Assembly (NCBI GenBank): GCA_963667295.1
Contig: OY763327.1
Span: 1,060,898 to 1,124,897 of the forward strand
From: Phycisphaeraceae bacterium
Lineage (GTDB): Bacteria > Planctomycetota > Phycisphaerae > Phycisphaerales > Phycisphaeraceae
Reading direction: 5' to 3'
Length of the DNA: 64,000 bases
Shown piece by piece: positions 1,779 through 64,000 of this stretch. The notes beneath the pieces are model-generated. The model saw nothing but the letters and a program-made list of their open reading frames with translations, searched no databases and was not told the DNA's origin. Every line of letters starts with the position of its first letter. Within the stretch, counting starts at the first letter, position 1. A program made the translations under genes and the position numbers.

Positions 1779-1863
1779 CACCGGGTCGACGACCCGGTGG
1801 GCCCCACGTCGTCGACGTGGGGCTAAATGCACATAAGTACCGTTCTTACCCGATATCCGACGT

Positions 1864-7729: not shown

Positions 7730-7756
7730 GTAGTGGCTAGTGACTGGAATTTTGAA

Positions 7757-9319: not shown

Positions 9320-9342
9320 CGAACACTCGCTAACATGTATCT

Positions 9343-43293: not shown

Positions 43294-44145
43294 ATGGCTC
43301 AGACACCCCCGTCACAAAACGCACAATCCCAACCACCGGCACAACTGCCCGGCGTAGACCGAATTATCGCTGTGGGGGCCGGTAAGGGGGGCGTAGGCAA
43401 GTCCACTATTTCAGTCAATCTCGCGGTCGGACTCGCACGGGCAGGGGCAAAAGTTGGAATCCTCGACGGTGATATCTACGGCCCGAGCCTGCCGACCATG
43501 CTCGGGATCAAAGGCCAGCAACCGCGTGCAGACTGCAATGTGCTGATCCCCTTTGATGTCCACGGCTTGGAAGCGATGACGCTCGGAGCACTGGTTGAAG
43601 AAGAAAAACCTTTGATCTGGCGCGGCCCCATGGCCCATGGAGCGTTTCAGCAGATTGCGACGCAAACACGCTGGGATAATCTGGATTACCTGATCATCGA
43701 CCTGCCGCCGGGTACGGGTGATGTGCCGTTAACCATGAGCCAGTTGTTGCCGCTGACCGGTGCGGTCGTCGTCTGTACGCCACAGAAGGTGGCACAGGAT
43801 GATGCACGGCGAGCGGTGCGAATGTTCCAGGCGCTGGGCGTCGAGGTGCTTGGCGTCGTTGAAAACATGAGCTACTTCATCGGCGACGACGGCAAGGAAT
43901 ACGACATCTTCGGCAAGGGCGGCGCCGAAGCGATGGCCGCGCAGATGGGCTTGCCTTCACTCGGCGCAATCCCGATCAACATGGCCCTGCGTCATAACTG
44001 CGATGCCGGCGACCCGACCGCAAACTTCACCGCGGGCGACAAACTAACTGAAGAGTTGGAAATGTTGGTCAAGAAGTTCAGCGAGCGCGTGGAAGAGCAC
44101 ATCGCCTCCGGCGGCACCGAGCAGCCGACGATAACAATCAGCTAG
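43294..44145 (+). CDS. apbC: Fe-S cluster carrier ATPase (Mrp/ApbC/NBP35 family)
   Basis: 283 aa; deviant Walker A (GKGGVGKST), ParA/MinD fold, CxxC cluster-binding motif region. Confidence 0.85.
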   Translation: MAQTPPSQNAQSQPPAQLPGVDRIIAVGAGKGGVGKSTISVNLAVGLARAGAKVGILDGDIYGPSLPTMLGIKGQQPRADCNVLIPFDVHGLEAMTLGALVEEEKPLIWRGPMAHGAFQQIATQTRWDNLDYLIIDLPPGTGDVPLTMSQLLPLTGAVVVCTPQKVAQDDARRAVRMFQALGVEVLGVVENMSYFIGDDGKEYDIFGKGGAEAMAAQMGLPSLGAIPINMALRHNCDAGDPTANFTAGDKLTEELEMLVKKFSERVEEHIASGGTEQPTITIS

Positions 44146-45364
44146 CTGGGACATCCTTGATGCTGGATGTTTCCTTTGCCGGCTTGCTCTTTTGGTTAAT
44201 TCGTTCAGATATTTGTCGTGATATCACTATTGCTGCGGAGATATCCTTGTCGGACATATGCTCCTGCAAAATAGTGATGTGTTGCTGAGCGCGCATATCA
44301 CCATTTGCATTGGCGAGAGTGAGCCAGGCATATGAAAGCTTATGGTCGACCGGTACACTATTGCCCGAGCCGTATATCAAACCTAAACTAAACTGTGCTT
44401 CAGCCAAGCCTTGATCAGCAGCTTTGCTGAACCAATTAAATGCTTGCGCATCATCTTTGGGTATAAGCTTGCTCTCACCACTTTGATAAAAGAGCCCCAG
44501 CATATGCTGTGACTTGGCATAGCCCTGCTCTGCTGCTTTGCTATACCACTTAAGTGACTCCACTTCATCTTTATCTACACCTTCGCCGATTGAATAAACA
44601 TTACCTAGCATGTGTTGTGCCCATGCATCGTTTTGATCGGCTGCCTTATGGAACCATCTCACCATCTCGGCTTTATCTTTAGGAACACCTAGTCCACGAC
44701 CTGAAATAAAAGCCATGCTTAATTGCGCCTGCAATAAACCTTGATCTGCTGCCAATCGAAACCACTTTGCTGCTTCTTTATGGTTTTGTGCCACACCCAC
44801 ACCCATTACGAACATCGTGCCTAAACGGGCCTGTGCTTCGGCGTGGCCTTGAATTGCTGCTTTCCTGAACCACTTGACCGCCTCAGTATCGTCCTTGGGG
44901 GTGCCTTCCCCATGATAGTATGCTGATCCAAGAACATACTGAGATTCAACATATCCTTGTTCGGCAGCCCGGTGAAGCCATTCAAAAGCAACGGCACTGT
45001 CGGGTTGTATACCTTCCCCGGCGGAATACAAAATTGCCAACATGTGTTGTGCGCGAGCATGTCCTCGTTCTGCGGCCTGTCTATACCACTTAAACGCTTC
45101 GGCCATGTCAGTTGGCACGCCGGTACCTTCTCGATAACAATCAGCGAGTATGACTTGGGACTCCAAGTCACCATTTTCAGCCTTCGCTCGTGTTATCTCA
45201 ACCAGATCAGATAATACGGTGGCTTTCTGACCATTAGCACAAATCGATGACAGACAAATGATGAATATACAATTAACTGTTAATAAGAACCGCATCACGA
45301 CCTCCGGGATAAGCAATAGCACAATCATTCTAATGAATGATTTCTGGTCGTGTTGCAGAAGCAT
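44138..45364 (-). CDS. Sel1-repeat (TPR-like) secreted protein
   Basis: 408 aa; signal peptide; >8 Sel1 repeats (AQ..LG.MY..G.GV..D...A..W...AA.QG). Confidence 0.75.
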   Translation of the reverse strand: MLLQHDQKSFIRMIVLLLIPEVVMRFLLTVNCIFIICLSSICANGQKATVLSDLVEITRAKAENGDLESQVILADCYREGTGVPTDMAEAFKWYRQAAERGHARAQHMLAILYSAGEGIQPDSAVAFEWLHRAAEQGYVESQYVLGSAYYHGEGTPKDDTEAVKWFRKAAIQGHAEAQARLGTMFVMGVGVAQNHKEAAKWFRLAADQGLLQAQLSMAFISGRGLGVPKDKAEMVRWFHKAADQNDAWAQHMLGNVYSIGEGVDKDEVESLKWYSKAAEQGYAKSQHMLGLFYQSGESKLIPKDDAQAFNWFSKAADQGLAEAQFSLGLIYGSGNSVPVDHKLSYAWLTLANANGDMRAQQHITILQEHMSDKDISAAIVISRQISERINQKSKPAKETSSIKDVPAS

Positions 45365-45444
45365 AAATCTGCACGATTCTTAATTTCAGGTCAGAACTTG
45401 AGTGGTGGTGTTTAGGGATTGATACTCCAATGTTACACCACAAC

Positions 45445-45993
45445 TCACCTGTTCCACGGCATCCTGGCAAGGACCACGCTCATGCCGCACCAGTCGGTGA
45501 TGCCGGCGAAGATCAGGCCGCAGCCGACGAAGCCGCAGATCGCATAGAACCACGGATTGACCAGTGTACCGAGCAGCACGCCGGTTAATACGAATGCGCC
45601 AGCTCCAATACGGACCTGTCGATCCAATGGTATCACGTTCTTTTCGTGAATAATGGGCAGGCCTGCTTCTTCACAGGCTTTGGTGCCGCCCTCAACACAG
45701 ATCGCGTTCACACCGGCTTTGATCAGCAGTTCACAAGCGTTCTTGGCGCGTGCTCCACTGTGGCAGATGACATACAACGGCCTGTCATTACCGTCTGGTT
45801 GGAGTTCTTGTGCTGAATGAATACTCAACTTATCCAGCGGGAAATTCCGCGCGATGCTTACACGCTTGCCGCGGTACTCTCTGGGTGTACGGACATCGAT
45901 CAGGTTAATCGAGCCGTCTTTTTCAATCTTGATTTTCAGGTCGGTTGGGGCAATCGTTTGCACCTTGGTGGGTGCGGACATCTTTGTGGTCAT
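45445..45993 (-). CDS. Rhodanese domain protein with C-terminal YgaP/DUF2892-like membrane domain
   Basis: 182 aa; active-site Cys loop (YVICHSGARA); C-terminal hydrophobic helices. Confidence 0.7.
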   Translation of the reverse strand: MTTKMSAPTKVQTIAPTDLKIKIEKDGSINLIDVRTPREYRGKRVSIARNFPLDKLSIHSAQELQPDGNDRPLYVICHSGARAKNACELLIKAGVNAICVEGGTKACEEAGLPIIHEKNVIPLDRQVRIGAGAFVLTGVLLGTLVNPWFYAICGFVGCGLIFAGITDWCGMSVVLARMPWNR

Positions 45994-49357: not shown

Positions 49358-50182
49358 TCACATGGCTTGCGATGATGAACGAGCAATAGGCTCGCCACAT
49401 TCCGGACAGGTTATGGACTCAGTGCTCCCACGCAGGTCGTAGTTGCAGGCTGGGCAATGGCCTGGTTTGATTCCAGGAAGAAGTCTTTTAATGGCAGCTA
49501 CTATCGGCCAGACTGTGGATATGACAAATACGCTCCACATTGGAAATGTAAGTCGCCACCCAACGTTATACTTCTGAAATGCAAAGCCAAACCAAGACTT
49601 TGGTTGTATCAGGATACGCTTGGGGTATTGAATGTAAGTAGGGGGATAGGAAGGGTACGCAGCGATTTTTAGCTTCGGTTCGCGATACCTGTCACTCATA
49701 TACATCACGGCATCGCCTTTTTGAAGAGAAAATGAAAGGTGTAATCCGGTTCCGAGCATACGTGGCCAATCAGCATTGACCGACCATTTGTATGATCCAG
49801 CCCACAATACACCTGCAAGAATCATAAGCACCGTTAAGCATGCGACTGATACCCGGTACAGATCGCCTCGGATTATTCTCATCAAACGAACTTCAACAGG
49901 TCGAATCCGGTTTTGAATTCTGTCGCCTGTGTATGCTTGATCTGGCAGATGCGATCTACTGGCATAACGACGGGGCTTGAAACTGTATCGGTACACAAAT
50001 ACAGCAACGAAGCATGCGATGATCGTTGTCGGCATCCCCCACAGTGTCAAGATGCATAGATATTCATGCCACGTTGGTGGATCGCTGCTGGCAAAGGTGA
50101 TGTAATCCAGTTTGACAGCATCTTGCCAGAAGCGTTGGAGGATACTCAGGCCGCTTACAAATATCGCTGTCGCCACACCCAT
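49358..50182 (-). CDS. Hypothetical polytopic membrane protein with C-terminal zinc ribbon
   Basis: 274 aa; ends CPACNYDLRGSTESITCPECGEPIA; low GC; paralogous C-terminus to the next gene. Confidence 0.45.
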   Translation of the reverse strand: MGVATAIFVSGLSILQRFWQDAVKLDYITFASSDPPTWHEYLCILTLWGMPTTIIACFVAVFVYRYSFKPRRYASRSHLPDQAYTGDRIQNRIRPVEVRLMRIIRGDLYRVSVACLTVLMILAGVLWAGSYKWSVNADWPRMLGTGLHLSFSLQKGDAVMYMSDRYREPKLKIAAYPSYPPTYIQYPKRILIQPKSWFGFAFQKYNVGWRLTFPMWSVFVISTVWPIVAAIKRLLPGIKPGHCPACNYDLRGSTESITCPECGEPIARSSSQAM

Positions 50183-50240
50183 AAGAATGGCAGCGAAAAA
50201 CCTTAGTAATGTACGTGTCTGGATCTTCTTTAGATGCAGT

Positions 50241-50567
50241 TCAAATCACCTCCCCGCACTCCGGGCACTCCAGCTTCGATAAGCCCTTGAGGATATAGCC
50301 ACACTGTCGGCATCGGCACTCACGGTCGTACCTCGGTCGTAGTATGAGTATGAATGCCAGCACGCTCGTTGCGCAGGTTAGACCTGTCATTGGGATGCCG
50401 ATCAGGCCTATTCTTATCAACTGCATCCACCAGAATCCCGGAGGCAGAGGGGCGTTCGCGACCTTGAGTTGGATGAACATAAGCAGATTACTGAACGCGA
50501 CGCCCACCACCGTGCCGCATGCCACCGCGATCAGGAACCGGCCGACGCCGCGTCTGGTTATCTGCAT
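50241..50567 (-). CDS. Small membrane protein with C-terminal zinc ribbon
   Basis: 108 aa; ends CRCRQCGYILKGLSKLECPECGEVI (same Cx2CxYxLxG...CPECGE pattern as 49358-50182). Confidence 0.45.
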   Translation of the reverse strand: MQITRRGVGRFLIAVACGTVVGVAFSNLLMFIQLKVANAPLPPGFWWMQLIRIGLIGIPMTGLTCATSVLAFILILRPRYDRECRCRQCGYILKGLSKLECPECGEVI

Positions 50568-50744: not shown

Positions 50745-50828
50745 GGCCGCGTGCCCGAGTGGACTAAGGGGGCTGATTGCAAATCAGCTAGGCTTCGCCT
50801 GTCGTGGGTTCGAATCCCACCGCGGCCT
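50745..50828 (+). tRNA. tRNA with anticodon GCA (Cys) and an atypical 15-nt variable arm; island integration target
   Basis: 7-bp acceptor ggccgcg/cgcggcc, U8; D-stem ccc/ggg with GG-containing loop; anticodon stem gctga/tcagc with loop ttGCAaa (U33, A37); variable arm taggcttcgcctgtc; T-arm gtggg-TTCGAAT-cccac; discriminator U73; CCA not encoded. Confidence 0.8.
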
Positions 50829-51000
50829 TACAGACGCACTTTTGTGCGTCTTTTTTATTGCACATAAAGCCTGCAATCGCAGTTATATGCATGATATCAC
50901 GCATTCTGGGGCTCTGAGATTGATTTGAAATACTGCACCCACACTGATACCATTTTGTTCAAGTAAGGTTACTTTTTCAGGCGCCCAAAGAGGCAGCACC

Positions 51001-52419
51001 ATGGCAAAGATTAAGTCTTCTGATGTCACTGTCAGCTTCAAGAAAAACAACAAAGGTAGGGGGGGGACCTTCTATAAGAAGTACAAAGACCCAGCTGATG
51101 GTAAGTGGAAAGTTAAGTACTTCTGTAAGGGTAAGGGCAAGTCTGACAGGGTGGCTGAGCGTAAAGCCAAAGCTATGTGCCTGGAGTGGCAAGAAGAGCT
51201 TGAGATGGTCGCAACTATGGCACGTGTAATCAATCGGGTGAAGGCAGCCACAGCCAACGGGGGCAACCCTGATGCCTTGGGAGATACCCTGGCTGAGCAG
51301 ATGGTGAAGGCCATGATGGGCAAACCTGATACAGCTGACGCCACCCCTGTGCATCAGCTTTCAGATGAAGACCTGGAAGAGCATTTTGAAGAGCCAGATA
51401 CCTTGGCTGACCAGGCTGCCAAGCAGCTGCTCTACTCCAAGCACTCTGCTGCTCGTAAGGTAAATCCCCAAAAGGGTAAGCCCACAATTTCTACGCTGGT
51501 AGAGCAGTGGCTGAGGTATGAGAAGTCACGTGTAGCCATTGGCAAGATTGGTGAGTCTACCTATGCCGACAAAGCCAAAAATGTGAAGCCCTTTGTTGAA
51601 CATGCCAACGGGGATTACTTCAATGGCAACGTAGAAGAGATGCTAATGAGCTTCAGGGCAAAGCTAGATATGCAGCTGGCAGCTGGTGAGATTGGCTCTG
51701 GCTGGACTCATATTGGCTATACCAAAGCCACATGGCAATTCATTGATTGGTGCTATACCAACCATAAGATTAGCGAGATGCCGCGCTGCAAGAAGCCGTT
51801 TTGTGAACGGGTGCCAGTAGATGAGGGCGGTAAGCCATTACAGCTGTCAGATATTCATAAACTCTGGTCTTCAGCTGGTGACCGTATGAAGTGCTTTATT
51901 GCTTTGGCTTTGAATTGTGGCATGAAAAATGCAGACATTGCTGCACTCAAGGGCAGCCAGCTTAAGGGCAACAGGTTGATTGGCTATAGGCCAAAGACTG
52001 GTGTGCCATTCAATATGAAGCTGTGGCCTGTAACAGTAGAGCTTATTGAGAAGTGCAGAGATAACCAGGGTGATGATGAGCTGCTGTTTGTGAATAAAGA
52101 TGGTGATGCAGTTAAGAGTGGTGTTATCAGCAGTCTCTTCAAGAAAGTCTCAACCAAGGCAGATGTGATTGTCGGTGAGACAAAGGGTGGTAATCCCAAG
52201 GGGGCCACTTTTGAGCAGCTGAGAGATAGCAGCATTGACCTGGTTGATAAGCAGTTGTTTGAGCTTGGCTATGATCGCGGTTTACTGCAGGTATTCCAGC
52301 AGCATGCCGACCCAAGCACTGCACGATACTATCGAGATAAGACACCGGAGCGTTTGCAGATTAAAAAACTGGATGAACTGACCGACTATCTGGGTGAGGT
52401 GTACGGGCTGAAGCTTTGA
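51001..52419 (+). CDS. Tyrosine-type site-specific integrase (phage integrase family)
   Basis: 472 aa; C-terminal catalytic region (LRDSSIDLV...HADPSTARYYRD with the terminal Tyr); lower GC than flanking chromosome; 172 bp downstream of the tRNA. Confidence 0.85.
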   Translation: MAKIKSSDVTVSFKKNNKGRGGTFYKKYKDPADGKWKVKYFCKGKGKSDRVAERKAKAMCLEWQEELEMVATMARVINRVKAATANGGNPDALGDTLAEQMVKAMMGKPDTADATPVHQLSDEDLEEHFEEPDTLADQAAKQLLYSKHSAARKVNPQKGKPTISTLVEQWLRYEKSRVAIGKIGESTYADKAKNVKPFVEHANGDYFNGNVEEMLMSFRAKLDMQLAAGEIGSGWTHIGYTKATWQFIDWCYTNHKISEMPRCKKPFCERVPVDEGGKPLQLSDIHKLWSSAGDRMKCFIALALNCGMKNADIAALKGSQLKGNRLIGYRPKTGVPFNMKLWPVTVELIEKCRDNQGDDELLFVNKDGDAVKSGVISSLFKKVSTKADVIVGETKGGNPKGATFEQLRDSSIDLVDKQLFELGYDRGLLQVFQQHADPSTARYYRDKTPERLQIKKLDELTDYLGEVYGLKL

Positions 52420-52443
52420 TCTCTTCTCAGCGATCTCCCGCCG

Positions 52444-52772
52444 TTAATCGACACTTATCCCCAATGCTTGCCAGAAAGCCATCTCCTGCATGATACGGAT
52501 ACCATAGCTTCTAGCTATATCTGCCTTGCTGGACTGTGTGTACGCATCTGCCACAACCAATAAATCCAGCTTCTTCGTAACCGATTTTGCGGGAACTAAA
52601 CCATGCTTATCAGCGAGTAATTGGGCCTGTTTCCGATCGATACGAACCCCATCGATAGAAGCCTGTAGCTCGCCAGTGAAACATACGCTTAGCCCTTCCA
52701 GCGATTGCTTATCTGGAACCTGGGGTGGAGCTACCTGTAATTTCTTCTGATTAGAGCTGGTCCCAAAATCTT
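52444..52772 (-). pseudogene. 3' fragment of a BRCT-domain gene truncated by the IS3 insertion
   Basis: Minus-strand frame open from the IS end to the TAA at 52444-52446; encodes ...KKLQVAPPQVPDKQSLEGLSVCFTGELQ...KKLDLLVVADAYTQSSKADIARSYGIRIMQEMAFWQALG, resembling the C-terminal linker plus BRCT of NAD-dependent DNA ligase; no start codon because the upstream part is displaced by IS3. Confidence 0.4.
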
Positions 52773-52810
52773 GGACAGCCGGTTGGCCTGAATAAGGTGG
52801 GCCAACGGGT

Positions 52811-53653
52811 TTATGCCGCGGCCAGCGGCGGTCCGGTTATAGGTTTTCCATCATACGCTTCGTCCGGCGTCCGTCCAGCGAGTGTCGAGTGCGGACGCTC
52901 GGTGTTGTAGAACCGCAGCCATTCATTGATCCCGGCGCGAGCTTCGCTGCCTCTGTCCCACGCGTGCAGGTACACGCATTCGTACTTCAGGCTCCGCCAC
53001 AGACGTTCGATGAACACGTTGTCCATCCATCGGCCTTTGCCGTCCATCGATACCTTCGCGCCCGCGTTCTTCACCGCTTCGGTCCATTCCAGGCCGGTGA
53101 ACTGGCTGCCCTGATCGGTGTTGATGATCTGCGGCGGGCCGTGCTTGCTCAGCGCTTCTTCCAACGCCTCGACGCAGAACGACGCCTCCATCGTGTTGCT
53201 CAATCGCCAAGCCAGCACCTTCCTGCTGTGCCAGTCCATGACCGCAACGAGGTACAAAAAGCCGCGTCGCATCGGGATGTATGTGATGTCGGCGCACCAC
53301 ACATGACCCGGCTGATCAATCTTCAGATTCCGCAGCAGGTACGGATACACCTTGTTTTCAAGGCATTTGACGCTGGTCTTCGGGGCCTGGTAGATCGGCG
53401 TCAAACCCATCTGGCGCATCAATCGACGCACACGCTTGCGGCCGACGTTGTAGCCAAGCCGACGCAACCAACGCATCATCTGCCGGCTGCCGTAGAACGG
53501 CGTGCACAGGAACTGTCGGTCGATCAGACGCATCAGACGCTCGTTGAACGCATCCTCACCGCTCGGCTTGTAGTACAACGTGCTGCGGCTCAAGCCCAGC
53601 AACTCACACTGCCGGCGGACCGGAATCAGGCTGTGCTTCGGTTCGATCATCAT
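52811..53653 (-). CDS. IS3-family transposase OrfB (DDE integrase core)
   Basis: 280 aa; rve/DDE core (DITYIPMRRGFLYLVAVMDWHSRKV...TDQGSQF...ERLWRSLKYECVY). Confidence 0.85.
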   Translation of the reverse strand: MMIEPKHSLIPVRRQCELLGLSRSTLYYKPSGEDAFNERLMRLIDRQFLCTPFYGSRQMMRWLRRLGYNVGRKRVRRLMRQMGLTPIYQAPKTSVKCLENKVYPYLLRNLKIDQPGHVWCADITYIPMRRGFLYLVAVMDWHSRKVLAWRLSNTMEASFCVEALEEALSKHGPPQIINTDQGSQFTGLEWTEAVKNAGAKVSMDGKGRWMDNVFIERLWRSLKYECVYLHAWDRGSEARAGINEWLRFYNTERPHSTLAGRTPDEAYDGKPITGPPLAAA

Positions 53654-53663
53654 CCGCTTCTGA

Positions 53664-53954
53664 TCAATCTGGAAACACCGACTTTTTTTTGAGCCAGTCC
53701 AACTCCACCTTCAACCGGCCGATCTCCCGATACAACCGGTCCACCAGCTCCGCCTGATCCGCCGCGTCCAGCTCACGCCGACGCCCGAACACCTCCGGCA
53801 ACGATTCGAGCAACTGCTTCTTCCACTGCGTGATCTGGTTGGCGTGCACCTCGTACTCGCCGGCCAACTCGGCTACCGTCTTCTGCCCCTTGATCGCCTC
53901 CAACGCCACCTTCGCCTTGAAGTCCGCCGAAAACCGCCGTCGCTTCCTCGCCAT
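53664..53954 (-). CDS. IS3-family transposase OrfA (HTH)
   Basis: 96 aa; IS3 HTH_Tnp_1 (RRFSADFKAKVALEAIKGQKTVAELAGEYEVHANQITQWKKQ); ends in KKKS at the frameshift heptamer. Confidence 0.85.
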   Translation of the reverse strand: MARKRRRFSADFKAKVALEAIKGQKTVAELAGEYEVHANQITQWKKQLLESLPEVFGRRRELDAADQAELVDRLYREIGRLKVELDWLKKKSVFPD

Positions 53955-54100
53955 CTGATTCGTCTCCTGTTAGGGATCGAATCCACCTTAACGACGCGCC
54001 CAGTTTTTGGGTAGTAGTACATGTAGCCGTTGAGGCGTGTTTTCGCGGCGTGTGGGGCCGGCGGCGGGTTGAGGTTGGTCGATCTGCTGTCCAAGTGTTT

Positions 54101-55273
54101 TCAAGCGAACAATGCCAACTGCGTCGGCGGCGGATCGGGCGGTTTGGTGTACGGTTCGTCCAGCCAACGCCACAGGTCCCGGTACACCAGCAGGTTCATC
54201 CGCAGCATGGCCGCGAGGTTGGACAGGCTCCAGCCGAAGCTTGATCGCAGCTTCAGCAGCTTGAGGATCAGCATCGCGATCAGTGCTGTCCAAAGCTGGA
54301 CCCGCACCGCGTTGGCGCTGGTGCCCAGGAACGTCTTGACGTGCAGGTTCTGCTTCAACGCTTTGAAGAACAGCTCGATCTGCCAGCGTTCTTTGTAGAT
54401 CGCCGCCAGCGTCGTCGCGCCGAACGTCAGGTGGTTGCTCAGCAGCTCGATCGTTCGGCGGTTCGCTTCGTCCCACACCACCACCCGGCGCAGCCGATGC
54501 GGGCAGGCGGCGTGGCTTCTTGTGCCCGCCAGCTCGATGACCTGGTCGGAGAGGATGTTACGATTCATCGGCACGGCACGCTCTTGGATCACGTTGTAGT
54601 CCAGGTTCGACTTGCACCGCGTGACGAACCACACGCCTTGCTCGCACCACGTGCCAAACAGGCCAAAGTCGGTGTAACCGCGGTCCACCGCCACGACCGT
54701 GCCCGGCTCAAAACGCAGTGTTTTAGCGGGGTTCACATCGTGCACCTTGCCCTCGGTCACCAGCGCCCAGCTCGGTAAGCAGCCTTGATGATCCAACTGA
54801 AGGTGCAGCTTCACCGCGCCCTTGGTCCGCCGGAACCGCGCCCAGTCGAACACCTGGGCACACAAGTCGATCACCGTCGCGTCCAGACTCACCAGCGGGT
54901 TCTTGAAGCGGAACCGACGCCCCCGGATGGCCTGCCGACCCGCCAACACCCGCGCCTGATCGAGCACCTGGTAGAACACCGCCTCGTAAAGCTCCCACGG
55001 CCGATGGGCGTTGGCGTAGCTGAGCGTCGACCGCGCCGGCGCCGCCGACACGCCCAGGTGACGCAGCCTGCCCATCGCGCACGCCAGGCCGCCGCAGACC
55101 TCCCGCAGCGAGTGCGCCCCGCCCAACTGCGCAAAGAGCATCGCCACCAGTTGGTCCCAGCAGGTAAACCCCTTCGCCCCACGCTCGGCATCAAACTCAC
55201 GCACCCGCCGATCAAACCCCGGCCGATCGATCAGACTCAACACTTGTGCAAACAGGCTTGCGACGCGTACCAT
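54101..55273 (-). CDS. IS4-family DDE transposase
   Basis: 390 aa; DDE_Tnp_1 hallmarks; element ends not confidently resolved; its 3' end lies only ~7 bp from the IS3 right end (abutting or nested insertion). Confidence 0.8.
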   Translation of the reverse strand: MVRVASLFAQVLSLIDRPGFDRRVREFDAERGAKGFTCWDQLVAMLFAQLGGAHSLREVCGGLACAMGRLRHLGVSAAPARSTLSYANAHRPWELYEAVFYQVLDQARVLAGRQAIRGRRFRFKNPLVSLDATVIDLCAQVFDWARFRRTKGAVKLHLQLDHQGCLPSWALVTEGKVHDVNPAKTLRFEPGTVVAVDRGYTDFGLFGTWCEQGVWFVTRCKSNLDYNVIQERAVPMNRNILSDQVIELAGTRSHAACPHRLRRVVVWDEANRRTIELLSNHLTFGATTLAAIYKERWQIELFFKALKQNLHVKTFLGTSANAVRVQLWTALIAMLILKLLKLRSSFGWSLSNLAAMLRMNLLVYRDLWRWLDEPYTKPPDPPPTQLALFA

Positions 55274-55387
55274 GGGCGTGTCTCCGTTGGGCTTCGAGGA
55301 CGATTAGACAACGCCATCGTAGCCGCAACGGAGACTTTTTCATTGATAAACTATGGATCGCTGTTTTGGACAAGAGTGTACACTTAT

Positions 55388-56407
55388 CTATTTTTTTTGG
55401 CTGTTATTGTTCGCAAGGCTCCTCTCAACCCGACCCTTTTTTTCAGAGGCTCCAGTTGCCACATGCCAATACCATCTACCGATATCGTCGTAACACTGTG
55501 CTGCAGGATAATGGTTAATAATCTGGTCATAGCAACGGAGTGCCTCATTTAAAGAGTCGGCCTTTTTATCTCCAGCAAACCTTGTCGCTTCTCCATAATA
55601 AGAATCTCCCGCTATATACCAACAAGTTCCAACATCAAAGAGGGCCCAAAATTCACGCCAATACTTTTCCTCATTATCCCGGCTGATTTTCGGCATATCA
55701 AGACCATACTGATCAATATGATCTTGCTGCTGTTCCTTAGCAAAAGACTGATATTGATCAATGCAAGAAAATGCTAACTTTCTCGCAATACTATAATCTT
55801 CAGATTTAAGATACTCCCATGCCAATGTTGTATACTGGCCTGAAGTTTGTGGGAATTGAGATTGGTTTTTCTTTTCCACCAAAACAAGGGCCAATTCACA
55901 TAACGGACGCACAGATATATCAACTTGCTGCACTTCTCCGTGAACAACAATCTCACTAATCCAATGAGCATCTGGGTACAAACTAATTACTTCCTTCAGT
56001 AGGTTTTTAGAGTCAATATAATTGCCTTTGCGTCGAAGGCAATCGCCCTTCAAAAACAAACAGACGCCGCTCATATTAGTATCGGTTGTTTGTGTGATAT
56101 ATTGATCAACTAATTGAATAACACGATCGCATTCGTCCTTCTCTCTCGCTTCCCAGATTTCATCAATTATAGAAATTGGTCTAGATGATTGATTCTCCAT
56201 GATAGCAATCTCGGAATTATGATATCCTGTGGTTCTACTTTGTGTATAAGATACCGAATTGGTATCTATCACTGAAGATAACTGTTCGGCTTGTGGTTCT
56301 CGAACATGATTATCATCACTTCCACTATCAGATTGCGATGAACATCCAATGATCAACAATAATTGAAACAGATAGACCGCATACAATGTAAGTTTGGCAA
56401 TATGCAT
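55388..56407 (-). CDS. Hypothetical lipoprotein with TPR-like helical repeats
   Basis: 339 aa; lipobox LLLIIGC; AT-rich (~40% GC) cargo gene. Confidence 0.5.
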   Translation of the reverse strand: MHIAKLTLYAVYLFQLLLIIGCSSQSDSGSDDNHVREPQAEQLSSVIDTNSVSYTQSRTTGYHNSEIAIMENQSSRPISIIDEIWEAREKDECDRVIQLVDQYITQTTDTNMSGVCLFLKGDCLRRKGNYIDSKNLLKEVISLYPDAHWISEIVVHGEVQQVDISVRPLCELALVLVEKKNQSQFPQTSGQYTTLAWEYLKSEDYSIARKLAFSCIDQYQSFAKEQQQDHIDQYGLDMPKISRDNEEKYWREFWALFDVGTCWYIAGDSYYGEATRFAGDKKADSLNEALRCYDQIINHYPAAQCYDDIGRWYWHVATGASEKKGRVERSLANNNSQKK

Positions 56408-56434
56408 AATAATGCACCTCTCCGTTATTCAATT

Positions 56435-57103
56435 TCAATTTGACTCTACAAGTATGTAATAATACACGGCGATATTACCTGGGCGTGTCTCTGTCGATCC
56501 TGCAGGCTGTGTCCTTACTTCATCCTGGATCGAATCAAACCATCTAGGCATATTTGGGTTGGTTGTGATTTGCGTTCTTGAGTTATCATGTGCTTGTGAC
56601 ACCATTGGAACAGAATGTGTATGTGATATTATGGAATCGGGCTGATAGTCACCAACTACACGATTTAATCCATCAGGATCCTCAAGACCGTCACTACGAA
56701 TCAATCCTGGTTCAAATGCATTTAACCCTCGTAAAAATGCACCACGTAAATCAGGAAGTTTTGTACGCCCTGTTATTTTTGCATAATCTGAGTCTGTGGA
56801 TATTTCGCGGCCATCCGCTGGCATCCAACGTGTTTTCACGCTGTCTCCATATGTTTCGTAAAGTTGATCCGGAGAAAGCGCACATGCGAATATTGTACCG
56901 ATGGGAACTCCAGGTGAACCGGGTGGGCCCTGGGGCCCTGATACGCCTTGAGGGCCAACAGCACCTTGATTTAAGTTTAATGCAGAAATAGTAACCAAAC
57001 CGGCTACAATACCGATGATCGTTGTAATCATTGCGATCCATGTACTGTAAATAGTTTTTGTATTAGAAAAGTGTTTGCTGCTTGTATGATCTGATTTAGC
57101 CAT
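56435..57103 (-). CDS. Membrane-anchored collagen-repeat protein with phage tail-collar domain
   Basis: Start taken at MAKSDHTSS (ATG 57103; ORF open to 57178); TM helix, GPQGVSGPQGPPGSPG Gly-X-Y run, then tail-collar signature (PIGTIFA...KLPDLRGAFLRG). Confidence 0.6.
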   Translation of the reverse strand: MAKSDHTSSKHFSNTKTIYSTWIAMITTIIGIVAGLVTISALNLNQGAVGPQGVSGPQGPPGSPGVPIGTIFACALSPDQLYETYGDSVKTRWMPADGREISTDSDYAKITGRTKLPDLRGAFLRGLNAFEPGLIRSDGLEDPDGLNRVVGDYQPDSIISHTHSVPMVSQAHDNSRTQITTNPNMPRWFDSIQDEVRTQPAGSTETRPGNIAVYYYILVESN

Positions 57104-58027
57104 ATGTTCTACTCGTTCCTGCTTGTACAATATGATGCATATAGACAAAGCTGACCATGAACCGATTATTATAACCACAAAAGAAAGGGCCGTTCAGATA
57201 AATATGTATAGCAATAATTACTCAATAAATAAAGGCACATAGCCAATCCATATAAGAAGTATCCCCAGTGGGGGACATCGCAGACCAGAGAATATGGAGT
57301 TGATGGAAAGCTGGACTATGGGTCGCCGAGTGGATAAGGCCGTAGATCGACAAGACCAGGTCGCCGAAGAGGTTCTGGATGGTGTAAAAAACTGGATCAT
57401 GTGTATTCTCATTGCGTTGATCTTGATGTGTTGAGTGTTTGGATCAGACAGGTTGTGGGCGTCAAGTTGATTTGGGGCTGGCGAGTTTGGACTTACTTAG
57501 AGTTTCCGAATTCTCAGCCAGCCAGCGGACCTTCTCATGGAAAGGCACACCGTTGGCCGGTTGCAGCAGCATCACGACGCCGACGCAGCCGACTTGGCCT
57601 TCATCCGTAAGGGGGGGGGTATGGGTCCATTAGTATGGGTATTCTGTTGCCGGTCTTAGCAGGATTGATGAAGAGTATGATACTCCCGATGTCAGGCTGT
57701 AAAAATAGACATAAAGCAGATATTGTTTAACGATATAAAGTTGTGAAATTGCTGACTATACAGTTATTCTTTCCAATCAGGACTCAGTCCACTCAAAGTC
57801 AATACAATTAAGGACTTGCTAAACCGGTTATTAAAAAGTAAAATTTTTAGCAGTCTCTCCGACCAGTTTCATCTATGGTCGTCGTTCGGTACGGAAGTTT
57901 ATAACGGGTACTGTCAGGATTCGCGGCGTATTAGGACGTTTCTAGGGAAGTTTTAAACTGGCTTTATCATCTCAGCCCGCGTCGGGTGAGAAGATCGTAG
58001 AAAATTCACTTAAGAAAGGGGCTTTGG

Positions 58028-59434
58028 GTGGCGATTCAAATGCGAATCAGGTTTTTGATATGTGTGATTTCCACGATGCTGATACTCTCTCTCTTCGTCG
58101 GCTGCAAGGTCCAGCCGGTGGATTACGATCAAGGTATGGAAGCGTGGCGGGCCTGCTGGCTACAAACCCAATATCTTGATCTAACCACCAATTCGGCTCT
58201 GATCCAACGGTTAGAGGATTTGCGTAATCAGATTCGTTCGATGGGGGCGGATGAGTGGTGGCGCCAGCGTAATGATGTTTACAACGCTCTGGTTTCACTG
58301 CGTGAAGCCAAGCACAGTTTTGATACGCAACTCGCCCGTGCGGGCAACACTGTAGACCGCGAGAGTGCAAATGATTTGTACAAAGCTACGGTCAAGGGTA
58401 TTCGGACCGAAGAAGATGCTCGACAAGCTGCTCCGAAGATCGACCAACTCGTAGATATCCAGAAACGACTCGACAGACTAAATAATATCGGTTTGAATCC
58501 GAGCTCAGAAGCCGCAAAGCAGATAGATACATTTGATCAACAATTAGCCTCCTTGTCGGCTGACGAAATCCTACAAAAGCTAGGTCGGCTCGAACAACTC
58601 ATTGAGAGAATCTTAGCGGTTCAAAAAGCCTTGAATGAACGGTTGGGCCAATTAGATTCAGCGGCGCAGCGCCAACAAGCGGCTGACCTTCAAAAGGAGA
58701 TCGAGGAGGCGAACTCAAACGAAGATGTGGACCAGATCGTGAGACAGTTCAAGCAGCTTTTCGGAGGTAAGGTTGCAATAGTCCCGGGACCTGATAATAC
58801 GTCCGTGAGTAAGGCAACCCCGGGGGGGGTAAGTCAGACTCAAAACTCAGACCAAACCGGCGTGGTGAGTCCCAATCCAAATATCAGCCAAGACCAAATC
58901 AAATCCGCGCTTAGTAAAGAGGAGGAATTGACAGTTCCCGGTTCTCAAGAGTTAGGCAATCCATTTGAGAGTCCATTTTATAAGCGTTATGAAATAGATA
59001 TCGCACCTTATGGGATCACAGAGTCAGATGGTAAAGCCAAGATTGACGCCAAGTGTATCACTCGTGAGATCCGAGCTAAATTGCAACTAAAACCAGATGG
59101 CGAGTTCAGTTCTATCAAAGGAACAAAAGTGCTTCGGGAATACCAGTTGGGGCTGATCCAAGGTGCCAAAGAAACATGGACCGAGAATGAAGCCAATGTA
59201 TCAATGGAGCTAGTGGGGGTACCAGAAAACGCCAGAGTGATCATGCATTCTTGGCACGCGCTGCCGGTGCCGGCGAGTAACGGCAAGGTTATTGAAGGCA
59301 CCACGATTGATCAGACCGTGGGCCAGTTTCGGCTGCCGGCAGGTCGTTACTACATACTCGGACAAGGTGAGACAGACTGGGGCTATGGTTTCGACGTGAT
59401 GGGAGCGATGACCATCAAGCATCCAGTTGAATGA
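58028..59434 (+). CDS. Hypothetical lipoprotein with long coiled-coil region and ~150-aa C-terminal domain (cassette gene 1)
   Basis: 468 aa; GTG start 6 nt after AAAGGGG; lipobox LSLFVGC; heptad-rich middle; contains a G8 tract at 58822-58829. Confidence 0.5.
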   Translation: MAIQMRIRFLICVISTMLILSLFVGCKVQPVDYDQGMEAWRACWLQTQYLDLTTNSALIQRLEDLRNQIRSMGADEWWRQRNDVYNALVSLREAKHSFDTQLARAGNTVDRESANDLYKATVKGIRTEEDARQAAPKIDQLVDIQKRLDRLNNIGLNPSSEAAKQIDTFDQQLASLSADEILQKLGRLEQLIERILAVQKALNERLGQLDSAAQRQQAADLQKEIEEANSNEDVDQIVRQFKQLFGGKVAIVPGPDNTSVSKATPGGVSQTQNSDQTGVVSPNPNISQDQIKSALSKEEELTVPGSQELGNPFESPFYKRYEIDIAPYGITESDGKAKIDAKCITREIRAKLQLKPDGEFSSIKGTKVLREYQLGLIQGAKETWTENEANVSMELVGVPENARVIMHSWHALPVPASNGKVIEGTTIDQTVGQFRLPAGRYYILGQGETDWGYGFDVMGAMTIKHPVE

Positions 59435-59463
59435 TAACAGATTAGAATTGTTATAAGGGATGC

Positions 59464-62022
59464 ATGGGGGCGTCGCAAAGAGCTGGGGATTACATGATAC
59501 CAGTGGAGACAGTCAAGCAGACACTGAACGACTTAGAACGATGGTATTGGTGCCATGGAATCGAGCGCATCAACCGGACAGACTATCCTTTGCGGCCTGA
59601 TTGGGCTGCTGAAATCTACACAATCCAACGAACAGCCACGCAGATCCTTGAGCGGCAGCACTACCCGCGTCCCGCTCTTGCGATCTACGGTGAGAGCCAG
59701 GTTGGTAAGTCCACAATACTCATGACCGAACTGGATGATACTCGGGCGATCGCCGATACATCCGGTGAAAACACCGTCCTGTCGGCAATCCAGTGGGACG
59801 ACCGACCTGTTACTTGGGGCGACTGGCGTTCTTGGCACGATTCTGCTGACTATATCGTAACGAAGACCGAACCGCTGAACCCCTATTCGGCGGGTACCGA
59901 CGCGACTGCAGTACCGACGCGTTTCACTCTCACCACGAACGTAACTGAGCCACAGATACCTTATCAGATTAGGATGCAATCTGTTGATAGCTTGATCGCC
60001 GCGCTGTACGCAGGCCTTTCGGATCATGGCCAAATCGACGCTCCTAATGGAAAACCGCGAGGTATTAAGAAGATCGAAATTACGCCTGGAGAACCTGATG
60101 CCGACCTCCAACGAGCTTTGATGTTGTTGGAAGCGGTGCGGCAGATGGTGGCGGAAAAGGAACTACTAATTAATGAAGCCGGTCGCCGCGTGCACGAGCT
60201 TGAGCCATTCTCCATCAATGAATTGTTTCCGTGTACTTATAATCAAGCCCGACGCTGGGTGGGTGAGTATCTGTTTGGCAAGTCACACTCGCTGTTTGAT
60301 AACATTCTCAGTGAGCACCTACGACTTATCGAACTGCTTGAATTTTTGAACCAGTACAACACCGTTCTCTGTAGTCCCCTTGTGGCGAGGCGGATATTAA
60401 AGTTCGATCATAGTGGTGAAGAAACATTATCGGAGATGATGTTCTATGAGCGTTCGAATGAGAACGGTAGGCGTGAACTCGCGATGGCCATGGAGCACGA
60501 ATATGATCCCAGCGAGAGGTGGCAAGTTATGGATCGCGACAGACTGCCCATCACCCGGGTAGTAGCGTTCCAGTTGGTAGTGCGAGAATTAGTAGTCCCG
60601 GTACGTGAGGACGTGCTGGGACGAATCAACGCCCCTTTTGCTGATGTCCTTCGACACGCAGATATCATCGATTTCCCTGGCATCTCCATTATGCCTGATC
60701 GTCACCGAGGTCAATCTATCGACAATGACGAACGGCGAGCATTTGTACTCAAATTCGGCAAGACCGCCTGTGTGCTTCGCGACTTTGTCGCTAGTGAACT
60801 TATTGATGGTATCCTTTTTGTCTGTACTGCCGAGGGTAAGATACGGGATTCCACCTCAGACTTGTTCACCCGAGTCATTGAACGTTGGGTTGGTAAAACC
60901 ACGTCTCAAGCTATTTCACTTAGTGAGGTCGAGCAGAACACACCTACGCAAGAGCGGCCTGTTTGGTGGGTAGCGACCCGTTGGAATGCGGTCGAAGCGG
61001 CCAAGGCCACGACGACCATCTCTGCGGGGATCGGTTCGATCCAGCAAGGTCTGCAGCACTGTCGTTTTAGACTTTATGCGACACATTATCCCATCTGGAA
61101 TGAAATGATCGCCAGTCCAGAAGAAGAGCAGCGAATCCGCTCTCTTATGAGAGGGCGGCTAAGGAAGCATATCCGGGATGACGGTGCCCAAAAGTCTTTT
61201 GACAATATCAAACTCACTATCTTAAAACCCGGTGAAGCTTTGGAGAGCACCCGGTGTATCTGGGATGATGTGAGTCACGTCTACAAAGACTTTGTCACTC
61301 ACGTCGACCTGACCGAGAGGCGAATCGCGAATCTTCGGGACGATATCCGTCGTCTTCTACAACGCAATGAAGCATATCCCGGTGGTGAACAGGTCACACA
61401 GAATAATCAGCGCCGGGTAAATCTCCGCAAACTGGAATACTGCCTGTTGCATACCCAAATCAAACGGCAGCTTGTACTAAGCGTGTCTCCTTTACCACGT
61501 CACCTGCTTGCTCAGTTAGCCGGTTCAGTAGAAGCTGGGGATTATGCCTCGGGTTTGTTCAAGGCCATGATGAGGTCCCTGCGTGATCAGTGGCGCGAAC
61601 AAGCTCGGGATGAGTTTGCACAGTATCTGTCAGCGTCTGAAGTTGGTGAATTGACAAAAGCTCTTGAGGACTCGGTCTGGATGGCAACGAGTGCGAACGA
61701 TTCCATGAGAACCGAGTTCTACGATTTGTTTCCTCGGGGACGGGCAGTCGACTCCAATCGGTATCATCGTCTCGATGGATTGGGGCAATTGATGGCTATG
61801 CGACTGGGGGACTGGCTAACAGGCTTGGCCGAGGAACCTCACGGACTACGAGATGAGGACATTCCTCACATAATCGAGCGGTTAGTTACACAGGATGCGA
61901 CCTACGGCACCCGGGACCCTTTACCGGGCGATACGCAGCTATCAGCAATCTCAGGGCTTAGTCAGTTCTGGGATTCGATAGATTTGGTGAATGGAGTTGA
62001 AGAGGGGGATACACAACTATGA
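59464..62022 (+). CDS. Large P-loop NTPase, possibly dynamin-like GTPase (cassette gene 2)
   Basis: 852 aa; Walker A/G1 LAIYGESQVGKST (~aa 77), dynamin-G3-like hhDxPG motif ADIIDFPGIS (~aa 397); no close family recognisable by eye; stop overlaps next start (ATGA). Confidence 0.55.
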   Translation: MGASQRAGDYMIPVETVKQTLNDLERWYWCHGIERINRTDYPLRPDWAAEIYTIQRTATQILERQHYPRPALAIYGESQVGKSTILMTELDDTRAIADTSGENTVLSAIQWDDRPVTWGDWRSWHDSADYIVTKTEPLNPYSAGTDATAVPTRFTLTTNVTEPQIPYQIRMQSVDSLIAALYAGLSDHGQIDAPNGKPRGIKKIEITPGEPDADLQRALMLLEAVRQMVAEKELLINEAGRRVHELEPFSINELFPCTYNQARRWVGEYLFGKSHSLFDNILSEHLRLIELLEFLNQYNTVLCSPLVARRILKFDHSGEETLSEMMFYERSNENGRRELAMAMEHEYDPSERWQVMDRDRLPITRVVAFQLVVRELVVPVREDVLGRINAPFADVLRHADIIDFPGISIMPDRHRGQSIDNDERRAFVLKFGKTACVLRDFVASELIDGILFVCTAEGKIRDSTSDLFTRVIERWVGKTTSQAISLSEVEQNTPTQERPVWWVATRWNAVEAAKATTTISAGIGSIQQGLQHCRFRLYATHYPIWNEMIASPEEEQRIRSLMRGRLRKHIRDDGAQKSFDNIKLTILKPGEALESTRCIWDDVSHVYKDFVTHVDLTERRIANLRDDIRRLLQRNEAYPGGEQVTQNNQRRVNLRKLEYCLLHTQIKRQLVLSVSPLPRHLLAQLAGSVEAGDYASGLFKAMMRSLRDQWREQARDEFAQYLSASEVGELTKALEDSVWMATSANDSMRTEFYDLFPRGRAVDSNRYHRLDGLGQLMAMRLGDWLTGLAEEPHGLRDEDIPHIIERLVTQDATYGTRDPLPGDTQLSAISGLSQFWDSIDLVNGVEEGDTQL

Positions 62023-64000
62023 TCCATCTGCGTGCCAATACAGGAACCCGTGCCTTCATTGTCTCGCCATGCACGAACGATTCCAACCGAGGATACACCC
62101 GTACCCTGCCTGATAAGTCATGGGTGCTGACAAGCCGAGCTGAACTCGATGGTAAGTGGTGGCACACTGTAGTCATCGAGACCAACACCGGTACCGCCCA
62201 ACGTGGGATTCGCTGGCCAGTTGAACAAGGTAAATCGGACCAAGACATTAATCCATCCTACCGTAGCTCTCAGCCCAATGTACCCCAAGAAAACCCTGAT
62301 AAGGTGTCTTGGGCGTGTGAGATCTGTAAACAGAAGCTTGATGTGGAAGTCAAGTGGGAGACGCACCGGGATAAGAGCGTGGTATACGACTTGGTAGTTG
62401 ATTTAGGCACTTCACGCTCCTCGGCGCTATTCGTAAAACAGGGCGAAGCGGGCGCAAATATTTCTAAACAGGTGGCCCCGTTGCCTTTCTGGCCAGAAGG
62501 TATATCTGGAGACACCCTCGACAACAAAATATCTGCTCCGCGGGGTCGCGACTATTCTGTGGTCCCATCATTAGCTTTCCTTTACCCGCACACATACGAC
62601 GCTCCAGAGATTTGGGAACCGTTGCTTTACAACGCCCGAGTACGGTTCAAGAACAGTACCCAAAACTCTCGCTGGTTGGATCCAATCTACACTTGGCTAC
62701 ACTTTCGATCGGGTAAACAGGACGACTATCAGGCAATCACCCAGCGCCCGTTGATGTTTATCCGGGCCTGCCCATTGTTGCTGAGCGCACACTCGAGCAC
62801 AAGAGAATCCAGTAGTCTGTGGAACCGTTTAATCAATGTCTACAACATCGGAGCGAGTACCACCGCAAGCTACCTGCAACCTGCTCCCAAGCGCTACCTC
62901 GCTAGTGAGAATCCAATATTGTGGGGATTCCCGATGGGATTGCAGTCAGACAAGGTGCATAACCCATTGATCGCTCGGATTATGCACACCAATGGATATG
63001 ACTGGCAACTCGGTCTTATCCACGAGCTTTATTACCCGACTGGTGCTCATGGTGGCGTCTGGCGTTTTCCTAGGCACGGATCACTAGTCTGGTATTGTTT
63101 GGGTATTTTAGAGCAGGCTTGGGAACAACTTCAGTCTGATTGGCTGGTTCGACACTTCGAGGGACCAAAAGTTAATGCCGCTCGCATCTATCGTCGGTTC
63201 GGTACGATCATTGCTACAATGCCCCCAGGCTGGCCTCCACGGGCAAAAATCCGTTGGCGTGCGGCTTGGCAAAGGGCGATTGACTTATTTCGCCAACTAC
63301 ATATAGAAACCAACAAGCTGAACACCAACCAGTCTGATGGCGTTTGGCCTGTTCTGGGTGAGGATGAGATAGATGAAGCATCTGCGGCCCAGATACCATT
63401 CGTAGGCGCGCTGTTGGAGGGCGGTGGCGAGTCTCTATCCAAGCTATGCACTGCGCTACGTCGTAATGGGAATCCGAGTAAGAATAGATTCCGTGTCATG
63501 ACGATTGATGTGGGTGGGGGGACCACCGACTTGTCTATCTGTCGCTACGAGGTTTTGGACAACTACAACATTCAAGCTTCGATCGTGATGTCACACAGTA
63601 GTGTTACTGCGGGCGATGAGGTGGTGTATGAGTTGTTGGAGAAGCTAATCATCCCAAAACGCCTTGAGAATATCCCTGACTCGGAGCTTAGAGATCAGGT
63701 GAGATTGCTTCTCAATCAGCCCGATGAGCAACTAGACGAACCTTGGAAAATCCAGATGCACAAGGACCAGTGTTATCTAGTTTTCACGGCGCTTGCCCAC
63801 GAGCTTCTCAAGCAGATGGCAGCCTCGAGCAAGGCAGAGCGTGAATCAGGCATCGTAGTCATAGACGCTAAGAATACCGACGCCGGTATGGGACTTGAAT
63901 ACATCCAGTCGTTGTTAGATGCGGCATCATCTGATCCATCGAAATTGGGAAATGACGAGATAACCTTAGACCGAGGAGCAGTAGTTAAAATATTCTTATC
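62019..64000 (+). CDS. Hsp70/actin-fold (ASKHA) ATPase-like protein, 3'-truncated by window end (cassette gene 3)
   Basis: At least 660 aa, no stop before the window end (so absent from the ORF track); phosphate-1-like VYDLVVDLGTSRSSALF (~aa 135) and phosphate-2 FRVMTIDVGGGTTDLSI (~aa 495) motifs; ATG overlaps the upstream stop. Confidence 0.55.
   Translation, partial: MIHLRANTGTRAFIVSPCTNDSNRGYTRTLPDKSWVLTSRAELDGKWWHTVVIETNTGTAQRGIRWPVEQGKSDQDINPSYRSSQPNVPQENPDKVSWACEICKQKLDVEVKWETHRDKSVVYDLVVDLGTSRSSALFVKQGEAGANISKQVAPLPFWPEGISGDTLDNKISAPRGRDYSVVPSLAFLYPHTYDAPEIWEPLLYNARVRFKNSTQNSRWLDPIYTWLHFRSGKQDDYQAITQRPLMFIRACPLLLSAHSSTRESSSLWNRLINVYNIGASTTASYLQPAPKRYLASENPILWGFPMGLQSDKVHNPLIARIMHTNGYDWQLGLIHELYYPTGAHGGVWRFPRHGSLVWYCLGILEQAWEQLQSDWLVRHFEGPKVNAARIYRRFGTIIATMPPGWPPRAKIRWRAAWQRAIDLFRQLHIETNKLNTNQSDGVWPVLGEDEIDEASAAQIPFVGALLEGGGESLSKLCTALRRNGNPSKNRFRVMTIDVGGGTTDLSICRYEVLDNYNIQASIVMSHSSVTAGDEVVYELLEKLIIPKRLENIPDSELRDQVRLLLNQPDEQLDEPWKIQMHKDQCYLVFTALAHELLKQMAASSKAERESGIVVIDAKNTDAGMGLEYIQSLLDAASSDPSKLGNDEITLDRGAVVKIFL

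Follow-up and report, generated by a model that had tools for sequence, protein, structure and literature searches.

Genomic islands inserted at tRNA genes, with a tyrosine integrase next to the tRNA, are a well-known class of element that includes enterobacterial pathogenicity islands and P4-type islands. Here we describe a region resembling them in the chromosome of a Phycisphaeraceae planctomycete, within a stretch of 64,000 nucleotides (GenBank assembly GCA_963667295.1, contig OY763327.1, positions 1,060,898 to 1,124,897 of the forward strand). We call this whole stretch the window, and use its coordinates throughout unless another locus is named. The region from 50829 to beyond 64000 is very probably a genomic island that was acquired horizontally and sits at the 3' end of a tRNA-Cys(GCA) gene, with at least 13 kb (50829-64000) visible in the window. 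It shares with other tRNA-associated islands an intact tRNA, insertion at the tRNA 3' end, an adjacent integrase, absence from close relatives, deviating GC content, variable cargo and later invasion by insertion sequences (IS elements); the repeat of the tRNA end is seen here in the variant site of a relative (L004, below). Unlike the classic islands, it sits in a Phycisphaeraceae planctomycete, its integrase belongs to a small clade with Lys and Glu at the Arg-I and His-II positions, and its right end lies beyond the window. As such, it is a genuine but ordinary example of a familiar element type, the tRNA-integrated element with its own integrase. A preliminary description of this DNA had listed the tRNA, the integrase, a BRCT gene fragment, an IS3 element, an IS4 transposase and low-GC cargo, and its placement of these features was borne out.

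Empty, variant and occupied sites

The decisive evidence for an insertion comes from relatives. A tRNA-derived pattern retrieved three GTDB genomes (Phycisphaeraceae or unclassified metagenome-assembled genomes), and a homolog search with the 108-aa gene adjoining the tRNA gave two further contigs. The tRNA-Cys gene is identical or nearly so in these five loci (L001 7808-7891; L002 4169-4252; L003 6001-6083; L004 9740-9823; L005 729-812), and is thus conserved across six genomes including that of the window. Two of them, L001 (OY771506.1, a complete chromosome) and L004 (ENA ERZ21831040 contig_11), align to the upstream flank of the window with 92-93% and 94-98% nucleotide identity, respectively, and in both the similarity ends at the tRNA 3' end. 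Both retain the upstream genes and the tRNA and lack the island genes, integrase and cargo alike, and the 9.7 kb of L004 past the tRNA has no match to any window sequence from 50862 to 64000. Neither L002 nor L003 has an integrase after the tRNA; genes for small membrane proteins and housekeeping functions come next in both.

In L001 the site is empty, and the tRNA leads directly into a different terminator hairpin (CGACCCGCTTTCATAGCGGG) and the final part of a convergent gene. The counterpart of this gene in L004 belongs to the GH20 family and lies, along with an acetate-kinase gene, within 1-8067 of that locus. L004 represents a variant site, with an integrase-less insert of 1653 nt between the tRNA and the L001-type terminator. 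This insert contains a low-GC Sel1-repeat gene and is flanked by a 16-nt direct repeat, CCCACCGCGGCCTTTT, consisting of the tRNA 3' end plus TTT (9737-9752 and 8068-8083 of L004). About 45 nt of the left arm of the island family, described below, is retained in this mini-insert (8068-9752). It could have decayed from a full island, or it could be a miniature element that is mobilised in trans.

One could also read these comparisons in the opposite direction, with the region being ancestral and deleted in the relatives rather than inserted in the window, and it is true that the comparison is limited to the six genomes that carry this tRNA. However, independent genomes would each have had to lose the region with a breakpoint precisely where the tRNA ends, L001 has a complete and different terminator, and L004 has attachment-like repeats. 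The composition and codon usage of the region are also foreign, and an integrase stands at the junction. We consider ancestral presence very improbable, and rejected it on the strength of the exact junction, the attachment-like repeats in relatives and the foreign composition.

The window junction and the L004 repeat CCCACCGCGGCCTTTT have in common the 14-mer CCCACCGCGGCCTT (50816-50829, plus strand), made up of the last 13 nt of the tRNA and one further nucleotide. It occurs once in the empty site of L001, and the window diverges from the relatives beyond it. Judging from these alignments, CCCACCGCGGCCTT is likely the core of the attachment site, and the exact crossover would fall somewhere within it. 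Probes of 23 nt and 14 nt, with mismatches allowed, and a k-mer script recovered only the tRNA itself when the window was searched for the right attachment site (attR). Since the tRNA 3' end is not repeated anywhere in the window, the island ends outside it, as the preliminary description had proposed. The 11 kb of L007 and the 6 kb of L008, two loci with related integrases that are introduced below, likewise yielded no attR. Composition, the empty and variant sites and the attR search of the window all agree with the earlier interpretation of the region as a foreign island inserted at a tRNA.

Between the core and the integrase lies the left arm of the island (50830-51000, plus strand), in which a hairpin scan found a terminator-like hairpin at 50832-50851; this is followed by a T run, ATTGCACATAAA and then the integrase leader. 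A tRNA-Leu gene in L007 is followed by the same succession of hairpin, T run and ATTGCRCATAAA; the counterpart there of the window's ATTGCACATAAA is GATGCGCATAAA, and DNA similarity between the two loci extends from 50807 to 51438 of the window. A shorter form of the pattern follows the tRNA-Cys in the L004 mini-insert, whereas the host terminator of L001 differs. Since the window and L007 share this arm despite their different tRNAs, the arm belongs to the element and not to the host.

Taken together, a plausible course of events would be as follows. The tyrosine recombinase would have recombined the island site-specifically into the 3' end of tRNA-Cys(GCA), with a copy of about 14 nt of the tRNA end, brought in by the island, leaving the tRNA gene intact after integration. 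The island would also have supplied the terminator-like hairpin directly 3' of the tRNA. Its integrase and BRCT genes would form the conserved backbone of a small family of islands that target tRNAs, mostly tRNA-Leu, in this lineage. In a later step, a resident IS3 element would have entered the BRCT gene, beside a resident multicopy IS4.

Composition and codon usage

We compared the composition of the island genes (the integrase, the BRCT remnant and five cargo genes) and of the three IS genes to a core reference of eight genes from the window. GC content at third codon positions (GC3) was 0.65-0.78 in the core genes, 0.31-0.54 in the integrase, BRCT remnant and cargo, and 0.79-0.86 in the IS genes. 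Scores for agreement with the synonymous codon usage of the core divided the genes in the same way, at +0.05 to +0.28 for the core, -0.09 to -0.32 for the integrase, BRCT remnant and cargo, and +0.10 to +0.24 for the IS genes. Tetranucleotide composition, measured in 2-kb windows, lay at a distance of 92-144 from the core profile over positions 1-44000, and of 157-265 in the non-IS parts of the island.

Profiling thus finds a compositional switch at the tRNA, with a low-GC, foreign-looking integrase and cargo to its right, much as the preliminary description had it. That description had also contrasted housekeeping genes on the left of the tRNA with mobile genes on the right. The right-hand side of this contrast holds, but the upstream part is not purely housekeeping, as the stretches 44138-45364 and 49358-50182 are compositionally atypical (see below).

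The integrase and its relatives

The integrase gene (51001-52419, plus strand) starts 172 nt downstream of the tRNA, on the same strand, and encodes a tyrosine recombinase of 472 aa. Residues 290-450 match PF00589 with 38.4 bits (cutoff 27.1; E 1.4e-9), and the protein also falls into the PHROG integrase family phrog_1 (1.1e-17). There was no match in NCBIfam, and a sequence search of the PDB gave nothing. At E 1e-3 or better, a protein search returned the source copy (P0004, 100% identical) and eight others, the closest homologs being 62, 60, 55, 48, 40 and 39% identical. A metagenome scan with the integrase alignment found only distant relatives (23-32% identity), and a search of 2.9 million viral contigs turned up neither close relatives of the integrase and the SrfC-like cargo protein discussed below nor a copy of the tRNA sequence.

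Several of these homologs are also found beside tRNA genes. Those with 55-62% identity occupy the equivalent place behind tRNA-Leu genes on other Phycisphaeraceae contigs, and their cargo differs from that of the window. The 62% homolog (L007) follows tRNA-Leu(GAG) (9743-9828 of its locus, with the integrase starting at 10001), and the next genes encode a 172-aa BRCT protein, an RNase_T exonuclease, TerB, a BrxC/BrxD-like AAA protein and a DEAD helicase. L007 comes from the same sample as L004, and GC content falls from 0.56 to 0.50 at its junction. The 55% homolog (L008) follows tRNA-Leu(CAG) (6799-6883, integrase start 7063) and is itself followed by a solitary Cas1 gene. Of the homologs from the metagenome scan, one (L011, 26%) lies directly after tRNA-Leu(CAA), and another (L015, 25%) has a tRNA-Phe upstream on the same strand. 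The order of tRNA, a gap of roughly 120-180 nt and integrase recurs in L007, L008 and L011. Clearly, this integrase family has been integrating beside different tRNAs in recent evolutionary time.

Two of these loci merit separate mention for their other genes. The region 9743-21425 of L007 is a sister island, in which the same backbone carries BRCT and RNase_T genes and then what looks like defence-type cargo (TerB_N/TerB, BrxC/BrxD-like AAA, DEAD helicase). In L008 (6799-9414), and also in L009, a Cas1 gene of 294 aa directly follows the integrase homolog, with no other cas genes called in the next 4.5 kb.

We mapped the catalytic residues by aligning the family to E. coli XerD with hhalign; the match had 71% probability, and the evidence is only moderately strong. 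In this alignment, K332, R408, H435 and Y443 of the integrase correspond to K172, R247, H270 and Y279 of XerD (Lys, Arg-II, His-III and Tyr), and R408 is invariant in the family. The Arg-I position is occupied by Lys in 7/9 family members, and by Gly or Asn in the other two. Arg-I is not strictly defining for the group, since some active integrases, such as IntDOT, deviate there.

These observations allow a bolder reading, which we put forward only tentatively and consider rather doubtful: that the islands represent an undescribed element family specific to Planctomycetota, whose recombinase works without the canonical Arg-I and His-II and has specialised on tRNA genes of class-II shape, with conflict modules being shuttled by the islands. 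The targets would be three tRNA-Leu isoacceptors and a tRNA-Cys with a tRNA-Tyr-like body and a long variable arm, and the modules would be the Srf-like genes of the window, the TerB, BrxC-like and helicase genes of L007 and the solitary Cas1 of L008.

The BRCT remnant and the IS elements

Downstream of the integrase, on the minus strand, lies the 3' remnant of a BRCT gene (52444-52752), with 102 codons and no start. It scores 20.3 bits against PF00533, just below the cutoff of 21.3, and its 102 aa match residues 71-172 encoded by the complete 172-aa gene of L007 (PF00533, 21.9 bits) with 89% identity. Around 70 N-terminal codons are missing from the window copy, at the end of the IS3 element. 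As this element interrupts the BRCT gene of the island, it must have arrived after the island itself.

The IS3-family element (52772-54093, minus strand) consists of orfA (53664-53954) and orfB (52811-53653), with matches to NCBIfam transpos_IS3 (281 bits) and to Pfam HTH_Tnp_1 and rve. Its terminal inverted repeats lie at 52765-52788 and 54077-54100. Although the orfA/orfB layout and the inverted repeats are as in other members of the IS3 family, no matching target-site duplication, of the 3-5 bp seen in the family, is visible here, the flanking triplets being TCT and AGT. It adjoins an IS4-family element (54094-55330, minus strand; its ends are approximate, the one near 55330 being taken from the drop in GC content), whose transposase (54101-55273) matches NCBIfam transpos_IS4_1 with 240 bits (cutoff 115), as well as DDE_Tnp_1 and DUF4372. 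As with IS3, this equivalog match is well above its cutoff. Only 7 nt (54094-54100) separate the IS3 terminus from the point where the full-length IS4 transposase gene reaches its stop codon. This proximity, along with the apparently missing target duplication, suggests either that IS3 inserted into the end of IS4, or that an IS-mediated rearrangement or deletion took place. With no matching duplication seen, some island DNA was probably lost at IS3.

The preliminary description had viewed the IS elements as high-GC and adapted to the host, and their genes are host-like in codon usage, with a GC3 of 0.84 for IS4 and 0.79-0.86 for IS3. Three distinct full-length variants of the 390-aa IS4 transposase, 99-100% identical, are all found on the 5.76-Mb source contig, indicating that IS4 is multicopy in this host, in line with the host-adapted view.

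Several points weigh against a simple island integrated by its own integrase. The canonical Arg-I and His-II are absent from the XerD alignment, with K309 and E405 at those positions, so the activity of the predicted integrase is not assured, and the island may or may not be mobile today. No excisionase was recognised among the window genes, and neither attR nor any other sign of the right end was seen up to the window end at 64000. Furthermore, the GC content is 0.40-0.43 at 55.4-57.2 kb, compared to 0.49-0.52 in the integrase and the Srf module, and two IS elements lie between the integrase and the cargo. The uneven GC of the modules and the IS elements between them make more than one acquisition possible.

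The site could accordingly be a composite hotspot, in which one arrival brought the integrase and BRCT genes and another the cargo beyond the IS elements, through tandem integrations at this tRNA or through IS-mediated rearrangement. We consider this less likely than not, and a gain of all of 50829-64000 in a single event is likewise only presumed. The island does contain three compositional classes, the lack of a matching target duplication at IS3 points to rearrangement or deletion at that spot, and the different small insert at the same tRNA in L004 shows that the site was used more than once. The BRCT protein is also 89% identical to that of L007, compared to 62% for the integrase, indicating mosaicism. 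However, no internal attachment-like repeat separates the modules in the window, and the whole region would still be foreign DNA at a tRNA site. Separate arrivals would thus refine the reading of the region as a tRNA-inserted island, and not replace it.

Cargo genes

The first two cargo genes to the right of the IS elements are on the minus strand. One (55388-56407, GC 0.40) encodes a predicted lipoprotein with a single TPR repeat (TPR_2, 28.1 bits) and a lipobox-like N-terminus (LLIIGC) in its translation. The other (56435-57178, GC 0.43) encodes a protein that has a membrane anchor, a short collagen-like stretch and a C-terminal domain resembling phage tail collars. The preliminary description had called it a tail-collar protein; it matches phrog_523, 'tail collar fiber protein' (9.4e-15), and has a PDB hit to the short tail fibre 9cuy (E 0.004), but there is no match to Pfam Collar. 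Both genes are very AT-rich and encode predicted envelope proteins.

A collar-like protein raises the question of whether the element is a prophage, or an integrative conjugative or mobilisable element, with the visible 13 kb being only its integrase-proximal accessory end. The integrase does match a large PHROG integrase family, and the element runs past the end of the window. However, no capsid, terminase, portal, tail-tube, relaxase or type IV secretion gene was recognised in 50829-64000, and the absence of close relatives of the integrase and the SrfC-like protein from the viral contigs, together with that of the tRNA, also argues against such an element. So does the collar protein itself, as a membrane anchor and a collagen-like run are typical of cellular collar-domain proteins. 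The sister island in L007 likewise carries 11 kb of defence-type genes and no phage genes, and nothing there or in the visible 13 kb resembles phage structure or a conjugation apparatus. All in all, an element of this kind is unlikely, and we rejected a prophage for its lack of structural genes in the visible part. The region is better described as a genomic island.

The remaining cargo is a cassette of three genes on the plus strand. The first (58028-59434) encodes a predicted lipoprotein with a coiled-coil middle and a beta-rich C-terminal domain; it has no Pfam or NCBIfam match, and no similarity to SrfA was detected. The second (59464-62022) encodes a P-loop protein of 852 aa that is probably a divergent member of the SrfC family. 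Its own match to PF10139 (19 bits) is below the cutoff of 28.1, but 174 relatives with the usual length of SrfC came up in an exhaustive search, and 41/41 of those aligned match PF10139 (best 4e-21). Its Walker-type motif, GESQVGKST, is conserved across the aligned homologs (G76, G81, K82, S83). The third gene (62019 to beyond 64000) overlaps the stop codon of the second with its start and is cut by the window end, leaving at least 660 of about 930 aa; it belongs to the SrfB family (PF07520, 73.7 bits, cutoff 27.1, E 1.2e-20), whose fold is that of an ATPase.

The only close relative of the SrfC-like protein (P0014, 31% identical) is encoded at locus L022 (GCA_905333755.1), where the gene order is the same as in the window: a protein like that of the first gene, the SrfC-like protein and an SrfB of 930 aa. 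The C-terminal 150 aa of the first protein are 28% identical to the product of the gene at the same position in L022 (E 2e-17), and the SrfB proteins share 31% identity over 684 aligned positions. The cassette is therefore a conserved three-gene unit related to srfABC, though divergent in its order and its first gene.

The closest described systems are the SrfABC operons of Salmonella and Xenorhabdus (PMC6950479; 10.64898/2026.09.18.752743). Like the cassette, these encode SrfB- and SrfC-type proteins of similar sizes, in a horizontally mobile three-gene unit whose first protein is membrane- or envelope-associated and about 470 aa long. They differ in having the order A-B-C, where the window and L022 have a first gene of another kind followed by C and B. 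The first protein of the cassette also has a lipoprotein-type signal, and the second falls short of the Pfam cutoff for SrfC. SrfABC of Xenorhabdus is reported to be cytotoxic and insecticidal, and the operon is described as widespread, with roles that are unclear (PMC6950479). In a 2026 preprint, the three proteins are modelled as a complex in which SrfA is the membrane anchor (10.64898/2026.09.18.752743). We suggest by analogy that the planctomycete Srf-like module may form an envelope-associated complex for conflict with other organisms. Running PADLOC on the cargo gave nothing convincing and no support for a known defence system.

The tRNA-Cys gene and its upstream neighbours

The target of the island, whose 3' end forms the left junction (attL), is the only tRNA that ARAGORN finds in the 64-kb window (50745-50828, plus strand). 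It is 84 nt long with anticodon GCA, scores 56.5 bits against Rfam RF00005 and folds into a cloverleaf of class-II shape. The D stem has 3 bp, the variable-arm stem 4 bp and the acceptor and T stems 7 and 5 bp (7/5); in L003 the variable-arm stem is kept through two double, compensatory changes. The discriminator is U, which along with the anticodon GCA makes up the cysteine identity elements (PMC7609411). Long-armed tRNA-Cys species have been described before, namely the selC* tRNA-Cys, but these have an 8/4 structure (PMC7609411), so the tRNA-Cys of the window is of another kind. In the literature searched, we found no description of a class-II-shaped tRNA-Cys of this sort.

In a comparison with E. 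coli tRNAs that gives weak evidence, the best and nearly gapless alignment was to tRNA-Tyr (58/84 positions); BLAST of the window tRNA against E. coli genomes found no match at that database size. A class-II tRNA-Cys with a tRNA-Tyr-like body may have come about through identity switching.

Left of the tRNA, small insertions and variable genes are also found. A low-GC Sel1-repeat gene (44138-45364; 408 aa, GC3 0.43) lies between ParA/Mrp-like and rhodanese genes, and the stretch around it (44135-45445) is an insertion relative to L001 and L004, which have about 127 nt there. Its product is 40% identical to that of the Sel1 gene in the L004 mini-insert, and in this lineage such genes seem to travel as small cassettes. 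The open reading frame at 49358-50182 is also compositionally atypical. The genes just upstream of the tRNA (49358-50567 in the window; 10001-10677 in L004; 6400-7630 in L001) encode small membrane proteins that end in a zinc-ribbon motif (CPxCGY...CPECG). Their number and sequence vary among close relatives, with the 274-aa version of the window having a GC3 of 0.47.

Significance

Our general understanding of genomic islands is unchanged by this example, and its practical value lies in the annotation of Phycisphaeraceae genomes, a family whose mobile elements are poorly described. Here, empty and occupied sites could be compared directly, bringing out a small integrase family and what looks like an active integration hotspot in the Phycisphaeraceae. 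The comparison also defines the likely attachment core, and a divergent Srf-like three-gene module is seen travelling on such islands. It is of some further interest that the host lineage has been little studied, that the integrase departs from the canonical residues, that the cargo is Srf-like and that the target tRNA-Cys has an unusual class-II shape. The Srf-like module, the odd active site of the integrase and the class-II tRNA-Cys are possibly worth experiments. If true, the last of these would mean that tRNA identity switching has occurred in a free-living bacterial lineage.

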